Position numbers and translations under genes: made by a program
Source: Paludibacteraceae bacterium
Lineage (GTDB): Bacteria > Bacteroidota > Bacteroidia > Bacteroidales > Paludibacteraceae
Assembly: GCA_045639525.1 (NCBI GenBank)
Contig: JAZUDI010000045.1
Coordinates: 5,479-69,478, forward strand
Reading direction: 5' to 3'
DNA: 64,000 nt
Shown here: positions 11,030 to 39,616 of the stretch, in pieces
Numbering within the stretch: the first letter of the stretch is position 1
Layout: each line of letters starts with the position of its first letter
The notes under the pieces: model-generated
Database searches by the model: none
What the model was told of the DNA's origin: nothing
Seen by the model: the letters and a program-made list of their open reading frames with translations, nothing else

Positions 11030-12640
11030 CTAAATCGGAAGTTTCGTAGCAGTTATGTATGCCGTATAGAGCAATAGGAGGGAGAGCATTGTGGCGATTC
11101 GCTGGAATGAACGGAGTTGCATGACCGCCGCCATCGCCGCTAACAACGCATAGAGAAAGAGCAGGTCAATGATGTGGAAAGCGATTCCATCGACGGCCGA
11201 GTGGGGTATTTTCCCCAACCATTCGATGGCGCTGTTCATCCCATGTGTGACGAAGGAGATCGCCTCTCCAACTCGTCTCATCAAGGGCGGGAAGGGGGTG
11301 CAGATCATAAGTAAAAGTGTGCCGTAGAGTAGTATTGTGGCGGCTGGTATGACGATAAGTCCCGAAATCCAGAATGTGTTGCTGAAATGGTGGAAGTGGT
11401 AGAGGATGATGGGGAGCGTACCTAATTGTGCGGCGATTGAGACGGAGGTGAGCGACCAGATTTTATCCCATAGAAGTGGCTTGAAGAGAAATGTCTTGTA
11501 GATTTTATCTTGCCATAAAATAATGGAAAAAACCGCGGCGTAGCTGAGTTGGAAGCCGATGTCGGTAAGGTATCTCGGTTGGTAGAGTAGCATGCAGAAA
11601 GCGGAGGCTAAGACCGTATTGGCGGTGTTCGACTTCCTGCCGATCACACCTCCGAACGCGACGAGGGAGAGCATTATGGAGGCTCTCACCACCGAGGGCG
11701 AAAGCCCGGTGAGAAAGGCGTATCCCCATAGAAAAACGAGTGTGGCGGGAATCCTTATACGCTTCATCGCGTTGCCTGGAAGCAGACGGGAGAGCAGGGT
11801 GGAGATGAGGAGATAGATGATGCCCACGTGAAGTCCGCTTACGGCGAGGACATGGCTTGCCCCTGTGGCGGAATAATTGGCCTTGGTCTCTGGTGTGAGT
11901 TGGCTTTTGTCTCCTAAGGTGAGGGCGGATATAATCGCCAATTCGTCGCCGGTGATCCCCGCCTTCTCTAATTGTCGCTCCACTTTTTGCCTCGTTCGCA
12001 TCGCCTGCCCTTTGAGGGTGAATCGGGGTGTGCCGTTCATCCTCTTCCATTGTCCCTTGGGGAGGTAAATCGTCCCTGAGTAGCCGATGCTGAGTAGGTA
12101 GTGGTCGAAATCACTGGGGGTGTCGATCTTCTTCACCAGCCGATTCGGGAATAGGATGATCTCTCCGGTGGAGAGCCTCTGTGATAGAGAGTCTTTGGCG
12201 ATGTAGAGTCTCGCCTTTGTTCCCGAAGGGAGCCCCTTCCCGAACAGACGGGCGTTGACGCGGTAGGTGGCTTGCCTCTCTTGGGGTAACTCCTCGATTT
12301 CCGCTAGGAGGTATCCCTTCCCGTCGGTCTCTCTCTCCCAGATGACGGGTGCTGTCTGTTGGGTGCGGAGGATGCCGACGATTGTCAACAGAATGAGTAG
12401 AGAGGCGCCGAACAGCCATCTTCGCTGGTATTGTCGCTCTCCGAGACGGAAAGAGAAGATGAGGGTGGTCCCCAAGGGTGGCAGTATGCTCCAAAGGGGG
12501 AGTTGGATGTTGGGGAAAGTGATTCCGAGGAGGATGCCAAGCGACAAAAAGATCGTCAGGCGTAAAAAGGGTAGCCGTGTCATAAGAAGAGATGTGAAAA
12601 ATCCCAATTGGGATGTGAAACAAAACGGGTATGCAAACAA
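11030..12640 (-). CDS. ComEC/Rec2-family competence membrane protein (no beta-lactamase domain)
   Basis: A polytopic membrane protein containing TGASHVLAVSGLHVGI, the ComEC signature. The real start may be the internal Met at 12583 (MTRLPFLRL...). Confidence 0.8.
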   Translation of the reverse strand: MFAYPFCFTSQLGFFTSLLMTRLPFLRLTIFLSLGILLGITFPNIQLPLWSILPPLGTTLIFSFRLGERQYQRRWLFGASLLILLTIVGILRTQQTAPVIWERETDGKGYLLAEIEELPQERQATYRVNARLFGKGLPSGTKARLYIAKDSLSQRLSTGEIILFPNRLVKKIDTPSDFDHYLLSIGYSGTIYLPKGQWKRMNGTPRFTLKGQAMRTRQKVERQLEKAGITGDELAIISALTLGDKSQLTPETKANYSATGASHVLAVSGLHVGIIYLLISTLLSRLLPGNAMKRIRIPATLVFLWGYAFLTGLSPSVVRASIMLSLVAFGGVIGRKSNTANTVLASAFCMLLYQPRYLTDIGFQLSYAAVFSIILWQDKIYKTFLFKPLLWDKIWSLTSVSIAAQLGTLPIILYHFHHFSNTFWISGLIVIPAATILLYGTLLLMICTPFPPLMRRVGEAISFVTHGMNSAIEWLGKIPHSAVDGIAFHIIDLLFLYALLAAMAAVMQLRSFQRIATMLSLLLLYTAYITATKLPI

Positions 12641-12685
12641 AAAAAGAGGGAGGCTCCGTCGCTGGAAGGAGGCCTCCCTATGGTG

Positions 12686-13336
12686 TTACAACGCCTTTAA
12701 TTGGGCGATGGTTTCGGTAGGGTTCTGCGCACCGAAGACGAAGCTGCCGGCTACGAGCACGTCCGCTCCTGCTTGCAGCAATCGCTTGCCTGTCTCGAAA
12801 TTGACGCCACCGTCGATCTCGATGAGCGCGTGGGAACCGCGTTTGAGGATCAACTCCTTCAAACGGGAGGTTTTATCGATGGTGTTCTCGATGAACTTCT
12901 GTCCGCCGAATCCTGGATTGACTGACATCAACATGGCCACATCCACATCTTGGATGATCTCCTCCAAAACGGAGACTGGTGTGTGCGGATTCAGTGTGAC
13001 ACCTGCCTTCATGCCACAAGCCTTGATGCGTTGTAGCGTTCTGTGAAGGTGGGTGCAAGCCTCGTAGTGGACATTGAGCACCTCGGCGCCGAGTTTGTGG
13101 AACTCGTCAATGAACTTATCGGGCTCCACGATCATCAAATGGACGTCCAATGGCTTCTTCGCGTATTTTTGGATGGCTGCCGTGACGGGCATGCCGAAGG
13201 AGATATTGGGAACAAATACTCCGTCCATGATGTCGAGGTGGAACCAATCGGCTTGACTGTTGTTCACCATCTCCACGTCGGAACGCAAATTGGAAAAATC
13301 CGCGGATAGCACGGAAGGTGCGATTAGGTGGCTCAT
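12686..13336 (-). CDS. rpe: Ribulose-phosphate 3-epimerase
   Basis: APSVLSADFSNL..., HLDIMDGVFVPNISFG, MSVNPGFGGQKF and DGGV are all present. Confidence 0.93.
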   Translation of the reverse strand: MSHLIAPSVLSADFSNLRSDVEMVNNSQADWFHLDIMDGVFVPNISFGMPVTAAIQKYAKKPLDVHLMIVEPDKFIDEFHKLGAEVLNVHYEACTHLHRTLQRIKACGMKAGVTLNPHTPVSVLEEIIQDVDVAMLMSVNPGFGGQKFIENTIDKTSRLKELILKRGSHALIEIDGGVNFETGKRLLQAGADVLVAGSFVFGAQNPTETIAQLKAL

Positions 13337-13414
13337 TCGATTTCTCTGTTGAGGGGAACGGTAGTTTTACGGAAGCGGAAGTCGCCCGACTGCCGGACCC
13401 TGTGGTTTATAAAT

Positions 13415-13446
13415 GAAAAAAGGAAGTAACTTTCGCCACTTCCTTG
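13415..13446 (-). terminator. Rho-independent terminator after tRNA-Pro
   Basis: On the minus strand, AGGAAGT-ggcgaaagtt-ACTTCCT is followed by TTTTT. Confidence 0.6.
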
Positions 13447-13453
13447 CTTTGTG

Positions 13454-13528
13454 TCGAGGTGAAGGGATTCGAACCCCCGACCCTCTGGTCCCAAACCAGA
13501 TGCGCTAACCGGACTGCGCTACACCTCG
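13454..13528 (-). tRNA. tRNA-Pro (anticodon UGG)
   Basis: The reverse complement folds by hand into a cloverleaf: CGAGGTG TA GCGC AGTCCGGTTA GCGC A TCTGG TTTGGGA CCAGA GGGTC GGGGG TTCGAAT CCCTT CACCTCG A. The anticodon loop is TT-TGG-GA. CCA is not encoded. Confidence 0.9.
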
Positions 13529-13543
13529 TTCTCAAATGCGATG

Positions 13544-13551
13544 CAAAGGTA
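13544..13551 (-). promoter_or_regulatory. -7 promoter box (TACCTTTG) for tRNA-Pro
   Basis: A TAnnTTTG match on the minus strand, 15 nt upstream of the tRNA 5' end. Confidence 0.45.
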
Positions 13552-13626
13552 TGTACTTTTGGGTACCCCTCCAAATCTTTTAGCCACTTTTTTTAGAAAA
13601 AAAATCACTTTTTTCTTATCTGCTTG

Positions 13627-13905
13627 TTATTCAATGAAATAATTTTTTGCACAAAATAGGGCTATGAGGAGCTGTACGATTAATAGAGCTGGAACGCCTA
13701 TGGAAAATTTTTTGTGGAGTGTTTTGTGGCGGATGAGATACATGGCTAAAAGTGCACCGATAGAGCCTCCGACGGCGGCGATCAGCAGCAGATTTTTCTC
13801 CGGGATTCTCCTTGCGTTTCTCTTTTTGGAGAGATGTTTGTCCCAAGCGTAGGTGGAGAAGGCCACGATGTTGATGGCGAGGAGGTAAAGAAGTACTACT
13901 TCCAT
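13627..13905 (-). CDS. DUF1294-family small membrane protein
   Basis: AINIVAFSTYAWDKHLSKKRNARRIPEKNLLLIAAVGGSIGALLAMYLIRHKTLHKKF is the characteristic DUF1294 pattern. Confidence 0.8.
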   Translation of the reverse strand: MEVVLLYLLAINIVAFSTYAWDKHLSKKRNARRIPEKNLLLIAAVGGSIGALLAMYLIRHKTLHKKFSIGVPALLIVQLLIALFCAKNYFIE

Positions 13906-13991
13906 ATTTTTTATTGCGTTGTGCTTGAAAAAGGATACAAAAAAGGGAATGTGCCGTCCGACACATTCCCTTGTGGTCTTTGGAATCAGTG

Positions 13992-31320: not shown

Positions 31321-31848
31321 TTATAGCAATTGGGATAAATCGTAAAACAAGGTCATGGTTCGGCCCTCAGTCTCCTCCAATCTCTTGTTCAACAGAACGA
31401 ATCCATTCTTCTTATAAAACGGAAGGGCGGAGGGTAATGCGTCCACCGTGACAAAGGTACACCCGGTTCGGTTGTTAGACACAAACATACTTTCAATGAA
31501 ATTCAATATAACTGTGCCAACGGAACAGCGCTGGTACTTTAGGTCTACGGCAAGACGTCCAATTTTCACAGATGGATAATCCGATCTGTGTTTGGCATGA
31601 GGAAAACAAGACTTTACCTTCCTCCACGTAGATTTGTCCGAGTCAGGTACTGATATTCTATCATTTGACAACGAAAAGAATGCAACTGTATCATTGCCTC
31701 TTTTTAGAAGATATGTAACTGATAGTAATCTTTTCAAATATGCCTTGGCATCGTTGAATAAGAAATTGTTTAGATCTTCATTTCCACAATCAAAAGACGA
31801 TAATTCGGTTTCTTCTTGCAAACGGATAACGGTAATTTCTTCAAACAT
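31321..31848 (-). CDS. GNAT-family N-acetyltransferase, toxin-like (TacT/KacT-type architecture)
   Basis: The N-terminal FDCGNEDLNNFLFNDA motif is typical of GNAT toxins. The core RLAVDLKYQRCSVGTVIL and the C-terminal FYKKNGF form the acetyl-CoA pocket. Confidence 0.7.
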   Translation of the reverse strand: MFEEITVIRLQEETELSSFDCGNEDLNNFLFNDAKAYLKRLLSVTYLLKRGNDTVAFFSLSNDRISVPDSDKSTWRKVKSCFPHAKHRSDYPSVKIGRLAVDLKYQRCSVGTVILNFIESMFVSNNRTGCTFVTVDALPSALPFYKKNGFVLLNKRLEETEGRTMTLFYDLSQLL

Positions 31849-31853
31849 AGAGG

Positions 31854-32012
31854 TTAAAATTTAAATGTTAGACATTTTTTGAGTTTCTCAGCATTCTCTT
31901 TTATCCTCTTCTTCTCTTCTTCTGTGGCCTTGGGCCTTGTTTCGAGATAGGTGAAAAAGTCAATCGCCGCTTGTCCGTGCAGCTCCGGTGTTGGTGCAAT
32001 AGGTGTAGCCAT
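31854..32012 (-). CDS. Unannotated 52-aa ORF, candidate antitoxin partner of the GNAT gene
   Basis: Hand translation gives MATPIAPTPELHGQAAIDFFTYLETRPKATEEEKKRIKENAEKLKKCLTFKF*. The stop lies 5 nt before the GNAT ATG. The ORF is below the track cutoff. Confidence 0.45.
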   Translation of the reverse strand: MATPIAPTPELHGQAAIDFFTYLETRPKATEEEKKRIKENAEKLKKCLTFKF

Positions 32013-32145
32013 AGTTAGTATTGTATTTAATTATTAATAAAATCTTTGCAAAGATAATGGATTGTCGGATGATTTCCAAAAATGGAATGTGGGTTCGATG
32101 AATTGTAGAGACGGTGTGCGCACCATCTCTACAACACTATACAAT

Positions 32146-33093
32146 CTAATCATCCTTACCTTCTTCGATAATCCTAAACAACAATGTGTTTTGGAAGGTG
32201 ATGGACTTGTTTCTTGCAAAGAAAATCGTACCGGTTACTGGGCTCTTGATTTCGCAGACTTGATATCCCTCGTAAGGGTGCATGATGCGTGCGATCACCT
32301 TGCCTTTCTTTACCTCTTGTCCCGCCTCGCTCTCTACGATGAGGATACCTGCGTGGGGTGCTTGGATAGAGATGAGTTGACTACCTTTCACGATGGTGGA
32401 GGCTGGCATCGCTTCTTTGTTGCTCACGCTCAAGGAGGCCATTCCCTTGTAGGTCATAAAGCGGCTGATGGCATCAATGGAGATGCGCGCCATCTCGTGG
32501 TCGATCGTGTCGGTGGTTCCCGCATAGAGTGAGAATGCCTGTGTCTCCCATATCTGCCAGTTGTAGTTCAACAACACTGTGTCGAATGGCTCCGGATCGC
32601 GGATGGCGATGTAAGGGAAGCCGAAATACTTCGCGTCCTCCACATCCTCGAATCCTGTGTGGATCATGCGGACGTGTGGCAAAAAGTTTCCCGGCAGATA
32701 GTATGAGGCCAATTGAATACCGAATTTGAAATCCTTGATAAACTCGAAAAGTCCCGCCGCGATGCGTTGCGTGGTCTCTCCTTGGTTGTAGCCGGGAAAC
32801 ATACGGTTGATATCCGTATTGTCTAAGGCCCAAAAACGTTTCTCTATATTGATGGAGAAGGGGTTGACCGAAGGAATGACTGAGATGGAGATACCTGGTT
32901 GCAGACGATTGTTCTCCTCCGCGAATTTTAGCAAAGCCACCAAGCGGCTCGCCACATATTGCTGTTGGATCTCGTCTCCACGCATGGAGCCTACGATGCA
33001 CAAAGTCTTGGTGCCCTCGCCGAAGGTATATGCTTTGATGCGGAAGTCATCACGGTAAGGGGATGACATGCTGAATATAGTTTGTACTTTCAT
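32146..33093 (-). CDS. AstE/AspA-fold (succinylglutamate desuccinylase/aspartoacylase, M14-like) paralogue lacking the zinc-binding histidines
   Basis: Collinear with 33113..34039. It reads CIVGSMRGDEIQQ where the paralogue has CIVTGTHGDELEG, and GIQLASY where the paralogue has VIDIHAS. The start was trimmed to the ATG at 33093. Confidence 0.7.
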   Translation of the reverse strand: MKVQTIFSMSSPYRDDFRIKAYTFGEGTKTLCIVGSMRGDEIQQQYVASRLVALLKFAEENNRLQPGISISVIPSVNPFSINIEKRFWALDNTDINRMFPGYNQGETTQRIAAGLFEFIKDFKFGIQLASYYLPGNFLPHVRMIHTGFEDVEDAKYFGFPYIAIRDPEPFDTVLLNYNWQIWETQAFSLYAGTTDTIDHEMARISIDAISRFMTYKGMASLSVSNKEAMPASTIVKGSQLISIQAPHAGILIVESEAGQEVKKGKVIARIMHPYEGYQVCEIKSPVTGTIFFARNKSITFQNTLLFRIIEEGKDD

Positions 33094-33112
33094 GATTCCG
33101 TAATTTTCTTTT

Positions 33113-34039
33113 TTATAGACGATGGATTCTTCCCAATAGGGAGCCTTCGTAAACCATCGGATAGGCACGAAGGGTGAAGAGCAATCCGTCGCAAGGAGCC
33201 TTCACGTCGCTGAGGACATCGCCTGTCAGTGGCGAGATGATTTGTCCGATGGATTGTCCCTTCTGGACGGTTGTGTCGTTGTGTAGTTCCGTGATGAATA
33301 CGCCGCTTATCGTGGCGTTCAGGAAGGCGACGGTATTTTCTCCTTGGCTGACAATGCTCTCTTTCAATCGGCTCTTGTCAGGCTCCTCTTGCCAAATGCC
33401 CATGCGGAACATCATGTTTTGGATACCATCCACCAGTTGGTTGCACATGGCGTGGCTGATTCTTCCGCCGACGCCCATTTCCGCCACGAGGCAGGGTGTT
33501 CCGGTGGAGTTCAGGGAGTGGGCTAGTGTGGATTCCAATACTGTGGCAGCTTGGTGGATCCAGATGAAGTCGATGCCCATTAATTTGGCGTAAGGGACCA
33601 ATAGTTCGGCAGTCTGCTCCGAGATACGCACTTGGGGCATCTCGCGGAGGAAGATGTTGGAGGCGTGGATGTCGATCACCATATCCGCGCCCGACAAGTC
33701 TGTGTAGATGTCGTGGGCCACCTTCTCAATCATGGATCCGCGGGAGTTGCCGGGAAATATACGGTTCATATCCAGGTCGAAGGCGGGAACGCCCCGTTGC
33801 ATGGAGTCGATGCCCAGTGGGTTGAGGGCAGGGTAAATATCGATGGTCCCTTGCAAAAGATGCATGTTCTCCTTCACCATCTTGGCGATTAAGTAGCAGA
33901 CATATTGTCCCTCTAATTCGTCTCCGTGGGTACCGGTGACGATGCAAATTCTCTTTCCTTTACCATTCGTAAAATGGTTCTTGACAATGCGGAACTCCTC
34001 GTCCACGGGCATTTCAAGACTTGTGACATTTTGAATCAT
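33113..34039 (-). CDS. AstE/AspA-family zinc deacylase/carboxypeptidase-like protein (metal ligands intact)
   Basis: GTHGDELEG (HxxE) and DIHAS (the third ligand His) are present, with a C-terminal beta-barrel (GDVLSDVKAPCDGLLF). Confidence 0.75.
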   Translation of the reverse strand: MIQNVTSLEMPVDEEFRIVKNHFTNGKGKRICIVTGTHGDELEGQYVCYLIAKMVKENMHLLQGTIDIYPALNPLGIDSMQRGVPAFDLDMNRIFPGNSRGSMIEKVAHDIYTDLSGADMVIDIHASNIFLREMPQVRISEQTAELLVPYAKLMGIDFIWIHQAATVLESTLAHSLNSTGTPCLVAEMGVGGRISHAMCNQLVDGIQNMMFRMGIWQEEPDKSRLKESIVSQGENTVAFLNATISGVFITELHNDTTVQKGQSIGQIISPLTGDVLSDVKAPCDGLLFTLRAYPMVYEGSLLGRIHRL

Positions 34040-34830
34040 AACGCTATCATTTCACATTTTATCGTAAGTTGTTCTTGTATATTCGTGCGGGCGAAAAACT
34101 GGCCTCGGTTGGAGGGACAGTCGTAAATATCTCTGCCGTGCGCGATCTTGATGTAGCCCCAATCGATCACCTTGTCGTAGGTGGGGTCAAGCCCGATCCA
34201 TTTCTCTTGGTCGTACACCTCCACCCAAGCGTGGGTCTCGCCTTCGCCCAAGACCAATCCGTTCACATAGCGGGCTCGGATGCCTATGCTTCTGCAAAGG
34301 GCGATCATCAGGTGGGAGAAATCCTGGCAGACACCGTGTCGCTTTTCGAACACCTCTTGGGCGCATGTTTTGTTGTTGGTGACCCCCTTTTGGTAGGTGA
34401 GATGAGTATGGACGGCATGCATGATCTCTTCCGCATTGCGCGCGTCGCAGGCACCTCCTACAGTAATCCCTGTCGCCCAATTCTTCATCGCGTCGTTGAA
34501 ATGGGCCATGGGGGAAGGGAAAAAGTATATGTCGCTGGGAGTATCCTCCACCACGCCGTAGGGACGACATCGGACCACCCCTTCGCTCTCTGTGCGGAAA
34601 TGGTCGTGGATCGACTGGTAACTGCCGTATTGGAGCAGGTTGCCTTGTGCGTCGCGCGACTCGTTCAACAAACAGTCAGAAGGGGAGATCCGCAACGTGT
34701 GCGACTCCACCTCCTGACAACTATTTGAGCATGGGATTGCCCTTAACTTAAAGAAATGGGAGGAGAGGGCAGGGGTGAATGTCGCCTCTGTCATGTAGTA
34801 AAATCTGTATCGTCTCTCCTCTCCGAACAT
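34036..34830 (-). CDS. Transglutaminase-like cysteine protease-fold protein
   Basis: GVCQDFSHL (Cys), ETHAWVEVY (His) and IGLDPT (Asp) form an intact triad. The N-terminus is Bact_transglu_N-like. Confidence 0.85.
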   Translation of the reverse strand: MFGEERRYRFYYMTEATFTPALSSHFFKLRAIPCSNSCQEVESHTLRISPSDCLLNESRDAQGNLLQYGSYQSIHDHFRTESEGVVRCRPYGVVEDTPSDIYFFPSPMAHFNDAMKNWATGITVGGACDARNAEEIMHAVHTHLTYQKGVTNNKTCAQEVFEKRHGVCQDFSHLMIALCRSIGIRARYVNGLVLGEGETHAWVEVYDQEKWIGLDPTYDKVIDWGYIKIAHGRDIYDCPSNRGQFFARTNIQEQLTIKCEMIAL

Positions 34831-34841
34831 CTCCTCTTCTT

Positions 34842-35543
34842 TTAGACTAAGACCAAACAGTTGATGCCTCCCAACACCGTGTTTTTATACGCTTGCGGAT
34901 CCTTTTCAAAAGCCTCCTTGTCGATGATCAACGCATGGAGGCGTGCGGCTTGTACGGCATCGAACATATCGGGATGGGAACGGGTATATTTTTGGATCAT
35001 ATCCCAGGTCTCCTCGATACGGTAATATTTGTAGTCGAAGCGGATGCACATATCCAGGTGTTCCAACAATCTTCCAATCTCTAAAAGGGCGTAGGTCTCT
35101 CCATGGACACGCTCGCGGATGCAGCCCCAGAAGGCGAGCAACCAGTCGGTGATCGGTTGGAGCTCCGTGATGTTGGTCTCTCTGGTGGCGGATTTCGCGC
35201 GGATGAGGTCGCGGCACAACTCAATGTAGGCGAACGACTCCGAATAGATCTCCGAACGAAGCACAATGGCGTTGTCCATCATCATCTCAATGATGCTTCG
35301 AAGGGAGGTGGGGGTGTCCGGATTGTAGAGTTGATCCATCATTTGGTAGCTGGTGGTCATCTCATTGGAGACGTAGATGTCCATCTTTTTTAGAAATTCG
35401 CTGTAAGGAACCTCTCCGACGGGCACGTCGATTACCTCATCATAGGCCTTGCGCATCAAGTGAAGCATAATGTAGCCCCTCTCGGCGTATCGTCCTAACC
35501 AAAACAAACGGTTTGCTTTATTTGCACTCAATATTGATTTCAT
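34842..35543 (-). CDS. Alpha-E domain protein (DUF403)
   Basis: ANRLFWLGRYAERGY... is the hallmark N-terminal motif. The protein is all-helical. Confidence 0.8.
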   Translation of the reverse strand: MKSILSANKANRLFWLGRYAERGYIMLHLMRKAYDEVIDVPVGEVPYSEFLKKMDIYVSNEMTTSYQMMDQLYNPDTPTSLRSIIEMMMDNAIVLRSEIYSESFAYIELCRDLIRAKSATRETNITELQPITDWLLAFWGCIRERVHGETYALLEIGRLLEHLDMCIRFDYKYYRIEETWDMIQKYTRSHPDMFDAVQAARLHALIIDKEAFEKDPQAYKNTVLGGINCLVLV

Positions 35544-35581
35544 ACTCTCAACAATTATTTTTCAAACTATAAGGAATCTAA

Positions 35582-36901
35582 TTATCTCTCCATTACCCAG
35601 GTGTCTTTGAATCCGCCACCTTGGCTGCTGTTCACCACGAAGGAGTTCGGATTGCGGCTGAAGCGCGTCAAGCCCGATTTCCAAACCTTGGTCTCCTTGC
35701 CTGTGATGACGAAGGCGCGGAGGTCGCATTTGCGTGGGGAAGGCTCTCCAGTCTCATCGATGATATCCAGATCGATGAAGTCCACCACCTCTTGCGCAAT
35801 CCAGCGTCGAGGCTCCTTGATGATGAGTTGCTTTACCTCCTCCAGACGCTCCGGTGTCATGTCTCTTCCGAACATCACGCCATATCCGCCCGCTTCGGCC
35901 ACATCCTTGATCACCAATTTCTCTATGTTGCTCAGGATGTATTCGTAATCCTCCTTGAAGAATGGCAAGTAGGTGGGTGCGTTTTGGAGGATTGGCTCCT
36001 CGTTGAGGTAGTACCTTACCATCTTCGGCACGAAGTAGTAGATGCCCTTGTCGTCCGCCACACCGTTGCCCAGCGCGTTGATGAGTCCGATGTTGCCCGC
36101 CTTGTAAGCCTCCATTAAGTTGGGAACGCCCAACAGTGAACTTGGCTCGAAGGCCAACGGGTCGAGGTATTCGTCTGACACGCGGCGGTAGATGGCGCCC
36201 ACGCGGATCTTCTGCTTGTATAGGCCGACATAGTAGACTTTGTTGTCCTCCACGACCAAGTCGCCTGGGAAGGCAAGCACGGCGTCTGTCTTTTCCGCCA
36301 AGTAGGAGTGCTCGAAGAAGGCGGAATTGTATCGTCCTGGGGTCAGGATGCAGTTGATGCCTCGTCCACCGTTGATGTCGTCCATCATCTCCTTGAGCAA
36401 TTCGCCGTAATTGCGGTTGTCTGCGATGAGGTTGTCCCTGAAGGTCTGTGGACAGGCCTTTCTGGTCACTTTGCGGGCGATCATCGGGTAGGAGGCGCCG
36501 CTTGGAATGCGGAGGTTGTCCTCTAAGATCAGCCATTTACCATCCTTCGCTTGTACCAAATCGATACCGGCAATGTGCGCGTATACGTTCAAAGCGGGTG
36601 TGATGCCTTCGCATTCAGGCATGTATCCTTTGCTCTCGTAGGTGAACTCTTTGGGAACAATGCCGTCGGCGACAATCTTTTTGTCGTGGTATATGTCGTA
36701 AAGAAACATGTTTAGCGCTTTCACACGTTGAATGAGTCCCTTCTCCAACATCTCCCACTCTTGGGCTGAAATTTGTCTTGGAATAGCATCAAAGGGGAAG
36801 ATTTGTTCGTTGAATACGCCATTCTTGTAAACACCAAAACGTACTCCATAACGTTCCATCCATTTATTCACGGAATCTCTTGCGGCTAACAGTTCTTTCA
36901 T
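35582..36901 (-). CDS. Circularly permuted type-2 ATP-grasp protein (DUF404/DUF407)
   Basis: FPFDAIPRQIS..EW..LEKGL.QRV.ALN.FL.DIY, LEDNLRIPSG, and NALGNGVADDKGIYYFVP are present. The size and motifs are typical of COG2308 proteins. Confidence 0.85.
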   Translation of the reverse strand: MKELLAARDSVNKWMERYGVRFGVYKNGVFNEQIFPFDAIPRQISAQEWEMLEKGLIQRVKALNMFLYDIYHDKKIVADGIVPKEFTYESKGYMPECEGITPALNVYAHIAGIDLVQAKDGKWLILEDNLRIPSGASYPMIARKVTRKACPQTFRDNLIADNRNYGELLKEMMDDINGGRGINCILTPGRYNSAFFEHSYLAEKTDAVLAFPGDLVVEDNKVYYVGLYKQKIRVGAIYRRVSDEYLDPLAFEPSSLLGVPNLMEAYKAGNIGLINALGNGVADDKGIYYFVPKMVRYYLNEEPILQNAPTYLPFFKEDYEYILSNIEKLVIKDVAEAGGYGVMFGRDMTPERLEEVKQLIIKEPRRWIAQEVVDFIDLDIIDETGEPSPRKCDLRAFVITGKETKVWKSGLTRFSRNPNSFVVNSSQGGGFKDTWVMER

Positions 36902-36951
36902 AACACAACAATTTAAATTAGACTGCTTTTGTCACTCTCATGTTCATGATA

Positions 36952-36959
36952 CAAAAGTA
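36952..36959 (-). promoter_or_regulatory. -7 promoter box (TACTTTTG) for the ATP-grasp operon
   Basis: A TAnnTTTG match on the minus strand, about 50 nt upstream of the ATG at 36901, inside a 340-bp AT-rich intergenic region. Confidence 0.4.
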
Positions 36960-37206
36960 AGCGAATGTTGTGTTTGATATGAATAAATGTAAGTGAAAAT
37001 AGATAATATAGTTGCAATAATTATGTATAATAAGCAAAACAAATAGCAAAATGATATTTTATAAGTAAAAAGTTTGTCATTTTGTCAATTTGAAAGCGAG
37101 GAAACCAGGGGTTTTTATCGGGCACAATTTTGGACATAGTCGGAAGTGTCTTTAAATACGTGATTTAAAGATACTTGTCAATAGCGTTGTCGGTTGAAGG
37201 TAGAAC

Positions 37207-37240
37207 GAAAAGGGGGATTGGAGATGGTGGGTGTCCCCTC
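37207..37240 (-). terminator. Rho-independent terminator after the esterase gene
   Basis: On the minus strand, GGGGA-cacccaccatctccaa-TCCCC followed by CTTTT, starting 2 nt after the TAG stop. Confidence 0.6.
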
Positions 37241-37241
37241 T

Positions 37242-39528
<2,287 letters not shown>

Positions 39529-39616
39529 GAGATATTCGTTTGGCACAAATATAGGTAATTTGGTTTAGAGGAACGCTTCTTGGGGAGATTTTCGGATGAA
39601 ATAGTTGGTAAATTGT

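Follow-up and report, generated by a model that had tools for sequence, protein, structure and literature searches.

We analyzed a 64,000-nt stretch of the genome of a Paludibacteraceae bacterium (GenBank assembly GCA_045639525.1, contig JAZUDI010000045.1, positions 5,479 to 69,478 of the forward strand), referred to here as the window, in which positions 32,146 to 36,901 hold five intact, co-directional minus-strand open reading frames (ORFs), G1 to G5. They encode a circularly permuted (CP) ATP-grasp ligase, an Alpha-E protein, a transglutaminase-fold enzyme, and two proteins of the AstE/AspA fold, the second of which is a predicted pseudoenzyme (Table 1). The ORF coordinates give gaps of 38, 11, −4, and 19 nt between successive genes, in agreement with an earlier note on this DNA, with G3 and G4 overlapping by 4 nt. 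For G5, an alternative GTG at 33168 would run into G4, and the ATG was used because the N-termini of its orthologues (MK..IF.M.SPYRD) favor it. The AT-rich leader and its single TAnnTTTG box, both described in the same note, were likewise recovered; the box lies 51 nt 5′ of the G1 ATG and is the sole coding-strand match inside the leader. Across the whole window the motif occurred 55 times against 34 ± 5.8 expected, an enrichment consistent with a Bacteroidota genome that uses such a promoter element. The proximal ~200 nt of the leader were 74–81% identical to those of L094, the corresponding locus in the nearest assembly (GCA_045642765.1), despite a different upstream neighbor there; four of the five proteins share ~94% amino-acid identity between the two genomes. 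An Rfam scan of the leader and operon gave zero matches, scans for sigma-70 and terminator consensus sequences stayed at chance level, and no signal peptide was evident in G1 to G5. The region is best explained as a single, complete operon that is cytoplasmic and self-contained, a variant of the CP ATP-grasp/Alpha-E/transglutaminase amidoligase system.

Table 1. Genes and leader elements of the five-gene operon (positions within the window)
Feature	Positions	Strand	Basis
G1, circularly permuted ATP-grasp ligase, 439 aa	35582–36901	minus	Pfam CP_ATPgrasp_2
G2, short-form Alpha-E protein, 233 aa	34842–35543	minus	Pfam Alpha-E
G3, transglutaminase-fold Cys-His-Asp enzyme, 264 aa	34036–34830	minus	Bact_transglu_N + Transglut_core
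G4, AstE/AspA-fold (M14-like) zinc amidohydrolase, predicted competent, 308 aa	33113–34039	minus	AstE_AspA_cat
G5, predicted non-catalytic AstE/AspA-fold paralogue (pseudoenzyme), 315 aa	32146–33093	minus	Fold and residue state
Leader/promoter region, 340 bp, AT-rich	36902–37241	minus	GC 0.32
TAnnTTTG box TACTTTTG, Bacteroidota-type −7 element (putative promoter)	36952–36959	minus	

Profile hidden Markov model searches placed all five proteins in the families that had been assigned to them from the sequence alone. G1 carried the circularly permuted ATP-grasp domain that defines the first member of the triad (CP_ATPgrasp_2, PF14403, E = 4.6e-132; CP_ATPgrasp_1, PF04174, E = 3.6e-123) and aligned over residues 6–438 with PDB 3N6X (E = 2.3e-113), including the C-terminal ‘VVNSSQGGG.KDTW’; the alignment begins at 3N6X residue 41, and G1 therefore lacks ~35 residues found at the N-terminus of the canonical form. 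Its mean pairwise identity was 72.5% across 81 orthologues, and its ratio of nonsynonymous to synonymous substitution rates (dN/dS), compared with L094, was 0.041. The adjoining G2 is a short-form Alpha-E protein (PF04168, E = 1.2e-16) that covers just profile positions 5–172 of 294 and in which the ER motif ‘WLGRY.ER’ is invariant. Its AlphaFold2 model was all-helical, with a predicted local distance difference test score (pLDDT) of 90, and matched no PDB fold significantly; the best match, a membrane helical bundle at E = 0.077, was disregarded. G3, the transglutaminase-fold protein that stands third in gene order, matched Bact_transglu_N (E = 6.5e-11), Transglut_core (E = 4.5e-24), and PDB 3ISR (E = 3e-15), and its catalytic triad C168/H200/D215 (GVCQDF/THAWVE/GLDPT), which the earlier note had called intact, is indeed so and is kept in 76 orthologues. 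Mean pairwise identity was 42% for the Alpha-E protein and 40% for the transglutaminase, and NCBIfam held no model for G1 to G3. Compared with its L094 orthologue, G3 was 66% identical with a dN/dS of 0.24, whereas the other four proteins were 94–95% identical with dN/dS values of 0.04–0.05. The divergence sits in a hypervariable middle segment (~34300–34700), after the N-terminal domain and before the catalytic core, leaving the triad untouched, and might reflect relaxed constraint, diversifying selection, or recombination of the segment.

The last two genes had been taken for two zinc-carboxypeptidase-fold deacylases, a description that suits G4, which is catalytically equipped, but not G5, a conserved pseudoenzyme. 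Residue states were read from alignments of 73 orthologues of each protein, and residue roles were transferred from a study of CphZ, a homodimer in which H50/E53/H179 bind zinc, E251 activates water, and R102/N112/R113 hold the C-terminal carboxylate of the substrate (PMC9974463). G4 matched AstE_AspA_cat at E = 6.6e-25, with PDB 2QJ8, 3CDX, 3NA6, and DoeB 6TWM as its closest sequence relatives (E = 4e-17 to 2e-10), and its zinc ligands H38/E41/H125, general base E187, and carboxylate clamp R82/N92/R93 were invariant (73/73), together giving the sequence signature of an AstE/AspA zinc amidohydrolase; its dN/dS against L094 was 0.037. G5 scored 28.7 bits against the same family (cut-off 25), over its N-terminal half only. 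In a Foldseek search, its AlphaFold2 model (m0ad49b762ccc, pLDDT 82.8) matched CphZ, 2QJ8, 3CDX, and DoeB at E = 1e-15 to 2e-18 with template modeling (TM) scores of ~0.7, which places it in the two-domain AstE/AspA fold, and the best PDB match was CphZ itself (8EIP/8EIN, E = 2e-18, TM 0.71). The carboxylate clamp is kept in G5 (R86/N96/R97), as is E41 (73/73), while R38 (73/73), A129 (69/73), and Y190 (73/73) stand where G4-type proteins have His, His, and Glu; because zinc ligands and the general-base Glu are lost, we regard G5 as a pseudoenzyme and not a deacylase. With a dN/dS of 0.053 against L094, indicating strong purifying selection, and a mean pairwise identity of 54%, above those of the Alpha-E protein and the transglutaminase, the gene is not decaying. 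The monomer model was least confident over the most conserved loop of G5, residues 81–104 (KRFWALDNTDINRMFPGY), possibly because this loop becomes ordered only on complex formation or ligand binding. This loop and residues 172–176, the two segments modeled with the lowest confidence, fall on two of the most conserved motifs of G5, the second being the start of TVLLNYNWQIW.

A scan with G1 against one genome per species returned at least 591 ligase relatives, and we examined the neighborhoods of the best 80 of these (66–88% identical to G1; termed gut-type here). All five genes were present in 72/72 loci that were long enough, in the same order in 71 of them, the odd one being a Clostridia locus with the AstE pair divergent upstream, and the eight loci without the AstE pair stop at a contig edge. 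When flanking ORFs were clustered, no further gene was common to more than eight loci, and no small ORF was conserved on either side; the unit therefore consists of exactly five genes. Related loci include some labeled Firmicutes and Proteobacteria. GGAGG sites precede each gene in the loci labeled Ruminococcus, Oscillospiraceae, Clostridia, and Peptococcaceae and are missing from those of Bacteroidales, so the cassette truly occurs in more than one phylum and its spread is no binning artefact.

The distant relatives carry the same architecture. A search with G5 against 1.84 billion representative proteins, followed by a second one with a distant relative (P0301) as the new query, yielded nine contexts, 8/9 of which contain an ATP-grasp protein (477–501 aa), Alpha-E, transglutaminase, AstE, and AstE in the gene order of the window, with a 4-nt overlap between the two AstE genes. 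These contexts include Desulfobacterota, a Myxococcota metagenome-assembled genome, other metagenomes, and Oryzomonas sagensis. Alpha-E length separates the two sets, with 223–237 aa in all gut-type orthologues and 304–320 aa in the distant operons where the gene is intact (the calls are split or shorter in L084 and L087). The five-gene architecture, which the earlier note had not recognized as canonical, is accordingly anything but unusual: it is a second standard layout in which the triad occurs, widespread and ancient. The gut version is a trimmed derivative of it, its ATP-grasp protein being shortened at the N-terminus, its Alpha-E protein having 233 aa, and its second AstE subunit being metal-less. 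In the ninth context (L081, 6227–8999; also L082), transglutaminase, AstE, and AstE occur without ATP-grasp or Alpha-E, downstream of DUF4129, DUF4350, MoxR-type AAA, and TPR genes, which suggests that the transglutaminase and the two AstE genes form a re-usable sub-module.

These neighborhoods decide whether the AstE/AspA genes are merely independent catabolic deacylases that happen to lie beside the triad. Nothing was found in favor of such a fortuitous linkage beyond a weak similarity of G4 to DoeB (TIGR02994, 63 bits), a score far under the cut-off of 402.7 that also disqualifies G5 (28 bits) as a DoeB; moreover, the second copy is no enzyme, and adjacency in 72/72 gut loci and 8/9 distant contexts, together with 4-nt gene overlaps, refutes the idea, to which we assign a negligible probability. 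The linkage proposed in the earlier note is thus real.

Across the same loci, the division of labor between the two AstE copies is old. The first copy reads HERNRHE (zinc ligands, clamp, and general base) in 9/9 distant and 73/73 gut loci. In contrast, none of 118 distant homologues of the second copy has the general-base Glu, which is replaced by Gln in 94, Arg in 12, and Thr in 8; most of the distant second copies retain the zinc ligands, whereas the gut type reads RERNR(A/S/T/C)Y, and single intermediates (HERNRAY, RERNRHQ) exist. Because first copies keep the full signature and distant second copies never have the Glu, the pair appears to have comprised one live and one dead subunit since long ago. 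Judged from these residue patterns, the dead copy lost its general base first and its metal site later, in the lineage that includes the window copy.

The triad of ATP-grasp, Alpha-E, and transglutaminase genes is among the most widespread bacterial operons without a known product. To our knowledge, the Pfam notes for PF04174 and PF14403 list transglutaminase, Ntn-hydrolase, and Alpha-E partners and no M14 or AstE protein. In the literature searched on the triad, DUF403/404/407, Rv2411c, Anbu after 2018, and COG3608, we found no functional study, and the statement in the earlier note that neither substrate nor product had been demonstrated holds within that literature; the 2017 Anbu papers left the question of the product open, nothing later was found, and a 2026 preprint on Mycobacterium tuberculosis was limited, for Rv2411c and Rv2567, to tests of GABA (gamma-aminobutyric acid)-trehalose synthesis, with a negative outcome. 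No paper describing the five-gene form or the live/dead pair was found in the literature searched, which left out Iyer et al. 2009.

In the classical operon, the ATP-grasp, Alpha-E, and transglutaminase genes are accompanied by Anbu, which is viewed as the peptidase component of a system for peptide synthesis or tagging (PMC6376114, PMC5666114). The present cassette shares with it the families and order of the first three genes, a hydrolase placed after the transglutaminase, a ligase in which about half of the residues aligned with the canonical 3N6X are identical by eye, and a possible link to nitrogen limitation (see below). It differs in that a live/dead AstE/AspA-fold pair, and no Anbu Ntn-hydrolase, occupies the fourth slot, and in that the gut-version Alpha-E protein has only ~233 aa and the ligase lacks ~35 N-terminal residues. 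No proteasome-family gene was found in the nine Pfam-labeled distant contexts or among the conserved gut flank genes, so the cassette is not an Anbu operon in the strict sense. The AstE pair fills the Anbu slot of the classical four-gene operon, and we therefore read it as a candidate non-orthologous replacement of the terminal hydrolase.

Among characterized enzymes, CphZ/AotO (8EIN, 8EIP) offers the closest structural parallel, with the same two-domain fold, an H-E-H zinc site, a general-base Glu, and an R/N/R clamp as in G4; it is also the last hydrolase of a nitrogen-storing cycle that starts with an ATP-grasp-containing synthetase. Unlike the present pair, however, CphZ is a homodimer with two active subunits, its identity to G5 in the structural alignment is ~13%, and no gene for CphA or CphB (cyanophycin synthetase, cyanophycinase) lies in the cassette. 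A phmmer comparison of G4 with 8EIN gave E = 3.7e-4 over residues 29–84 only, and neither G4 nor G5 qualifies as CphZ by the published criteria of >30% identity, >70% coverage, and accompanying cyanophycin genes (PMC9974463). DoeB/EutE and the COG3608-type ‘predicted deacylases’ resemble G4 in length, domain layout, and the C-terminal beta hybrid domain, but no ectoine genes lie nearby.

The functional neighbors of the cassette point toward nitrogen metabolism. An Amt ammonium-transporter-family gene (PF00909, E = 3e-105) adjoins or interrupts the gut-type cassette at eight loci, and at least four arrangements occur: immediately upstream in the same direction (L033, L036, L045), downstream (L001, L035), divergent upstream (L002, L025), and, in L040, inside the operon between Alpha-E and transglutaminase (12550–13962). 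No PII gene was found next to these Amt genes. Among 128 immediate neighbors, Amt and the SBF transporter tie for the commonest with five each, and asparagine synthase, glutamine-dependent NAD synthetase, and carbamoyl-phosphate synthase occur twice each. The SBF (sodium/bile-acid symporter family) protein, of ~320 aa, is encoded directly after G5 in L016, L017, L019, and L022, overlapping G5 by a few bases in two of them. In 4/8 distant five-gene loci (L083, L084, L085, and L087), a sigma-54-type −24/−12 element, TGGCAC-N5-TTGC with at most one mismatch (e.g., TGGCACGCAGCTTGCC), lies 43–64 nt 5′ of the ligase gene, where ~0.02 chance matches are expected by a pattern-probability estimate. In published work, loss of ntrC in nitrogen-limited Burkholderia cenocepacia lowered the triad genes 6- to 9.4-fold (PMC5491218), and induction of the Anbu operon in nitrogen-starved Pseudomonas putida is cited in PMC6376114 and PMC5666114. 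For the window copy, a nitrogen link would come by homology only. In two distant loci, a sixth gene follows the second AstE gene directly (L089, 8966–9634; L093, 7942–8631, with a 4-nt overlap in L093); its product is a class-I glutamine amidotransferase/Peptidase_C26-like protein, which hints at gamma-glutamyl chemistry.

The same flanks bear on whether the operon makes a secreted peptide natural product, such as a ribosomally synthesized and post-translationally modified peptide-like molecule, with the AstE pair serving maturation or self-resistance. ATP-grasp ligases and transglutaminase-fold peptidases are found in peptide natural-product clusters, and the cassette does sit in variable genomic contexts. 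Yet the gut-type loci showed no conserved precursor ORF on either side and no conserved transporter or exporter, Amt and SBF being the top transporter neighbors at 5/128 each. The five genes, moreover, are kept across phyla, and the conservation of the ligase noted above is unlike that of diversifying clusters, which makes this origin very unlikely.

Our preferred reading, which we hold at about even confidence, is that the operon encodes a make-and-break cycle acting on a small amide-linked compound or short polymer and serving the nitrogen economy, in which G4 and G5 form a heteromer. In an ATP-dependent reaction, G1, probably with G2, would activate a carboxylate and join it in an amide (peptide or isopeptide) bond, and G3 would cleave, deamidate, or transfer such a bond. 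The AstE pair would be the terminal hydrolase of the system: G4, within the heteromer, would act on a small N-acyl amino acid or iso-dipeptide and release from it an amino acid whose alpha-carboxylate is free, and G5, as a clamp-bearing dead paralogue, would serve as a substrate-binding or regulatory subunit. Such a cycle would follow a logic like that of cyanophycin (CphA–CphB–CphZ) or of gamma-glutamylation ‘handle’ pathways. Complex formation, the direction of the chemistry, the order of steps, the small-molecule substrate, and the nitrogen role are what we infer here from the observed gene content, conservation, residues, selection, and contexts. The characterized enzymes among the matches of G4 and G5 (CphZ, DoeB, AstE, aspartoacylase, and aminoacylase 3) all cut small N-acyl amino acids or dipeptides and free an amino acid with its alpha-carboxylate; DoeB acts on N-acetyl-diaminobutyrate, and CphZ acts on beta-Asp-Arg (PMC9974463). 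The build-and-trim logic suggested in the earlier note also has precedents in co-encoded enzymes, namely the RimK ligase with the RimB hydrolase (PMC11957051) and CphA with CphB and CphZ (PMC9974463). A molecule of the gamma-glutamyl or N-acyl amino acid type, as that note suggested, would be compatible with these data.

Several points weigh against this cycle. Pull-downs with an Anbu-type operon gave no stable complexes, phosphate release from ATP by the Yersinia ATP-grasp homologue being the only activity detected (PMC6376114). The proposed G4:G5 heteromer is argued from paralogy, adjacency, and the CphZ homodimer, and it is conceivable that G5 is catalytic by some unforeseen mechanism. If one operon encodes both the ligase and the hydrolase for a given bond, a futile cycle would result unless the two activities are split by time or by an intermediate step. 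As to nitrogen, the 64-kb window contains no Amt or PII gene, the sigma-54 motif occurs in 0/78 gut-type leaders, and the Amt association is limited to 8/80 loci.

Protein tagging, in a pupylation- or polyglutamylation-like manner, is the main alternative use of such chemistry: G1 and G2 would attach an amino acid or a peptide to a carboxylate group of a protein. The triad was first proposed to work in this way on the basis of comparative genomics (Iyer et al. 2009, as cited in PMC6376114 and PMC5666114), and RimK with its co-encoded trimming peptidase RimB acts on a protein, ribosomal protein S6 (PMC11957051). RimK and RimB follow the operon logic proposed here, in that a chain built through amide linkages by one enzyme is removed by another encoded alongside it; they differ in that RimK is not circularly permuted, RimB is a retropepsin and not M14-like, neither Alpha-E nor transglutaminase is involved, and the target is known. 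The cassette holds no substrate gene, so the target would have to be a general cell component; however, it also holds no tag gene, no target is known in any organism, and all characterized hydrolase matches act on small N-acyl amino acids or dipeptides. We consider ligation onto proteins unlikely, and the further assignments within this scheme, with G3 processing or transferring the tag and G4/G5 acting as an eraser carboxypeptidase that trims it, are just as doubtful.

Returning to the proposed cycle, a broader possibility, which we put forward tentatively and as one joint claim, is that operons with the AstE pair represent an unrecognized, phylum-spanning, nitrogen-regulated pathway that builds and recycles an amide-linked metabolite or short polymer, either another nitrogen buffer in the manner of cyanophycin or a ‘handle’ pathway of a new kind, and in which the second AstE would be a natural substrate-trapping subunit. 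If so, a small-molecule-type amidohydrolase would stand in the place of Anbu, and Anbu, too, would act as the amidase for a small product and not as a proteasome-like protease. The search for the product is narrowed by the substrates of the characterized members of the terminal hydrolase family, all of them small N-acyl amino acids or dipeptides, and a conserved dead subunit with a substrate clamp is a ready-made bait for ligand fishing. The distant second copies, which have the zinc site and lack only the catalytic Glu, are altered in the same way as a substrate-trapping mutant of CphZ, E251A, which was inactive, retained zinc, and bound beta-Asp-Arg at 7.6 μM (PMC9974463). The cassette is common in gut and rumen Bacteroidales, including the cultivable Parabacteroides distasonis and Prevotella, which makes genetics and metabolomics feasible, and the Amt and sigma-54 context gives a condition to look under, nitrogen limitation.

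Upstream of the operon in the window, a 375-aa ORF (38419–39546, minus strand) overlaps the start of an esterase gene by 17 nt and had no match in Pfam, NCBIfam, or PADLOC. On the other side, a 52-aa ORF (31854–32012), itself without a Pfam match, lies 5 nt upstream of a gene for a 175-aa GNAT acetyltransferase (31321–31848), both on the minus strand and with a TAnnTTTG box of their own (32049–32056). In L094, this pair is found upstream of the cassette, between the esterase gene and G1, and not downstream. A role of the operon in conflict or defense, as an anti-phage or toxin system on a mobile cassette, could draw on this shift of the adjoining pair, on flanks that differ between genomes, and on the fast-evolving segment of G3. 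PADLOC, however, gave zero matches for all five proteins, no integrase or repeats were common to the borders, the L094 cassette sits between the same esterase and isoleucyl-tRNA synthetase (IleRS) genes, and the functional neighbors are metabolic and nitrogen-related, so we rate this role as highly improbable, slightly more so than that in natural-product synthesis. The changed position of the GNAT/small-ORF pair between the window and L094 shows that it behaves as a movable two-gene module, and it may be a GNAT-toxin/antitoxin pair.

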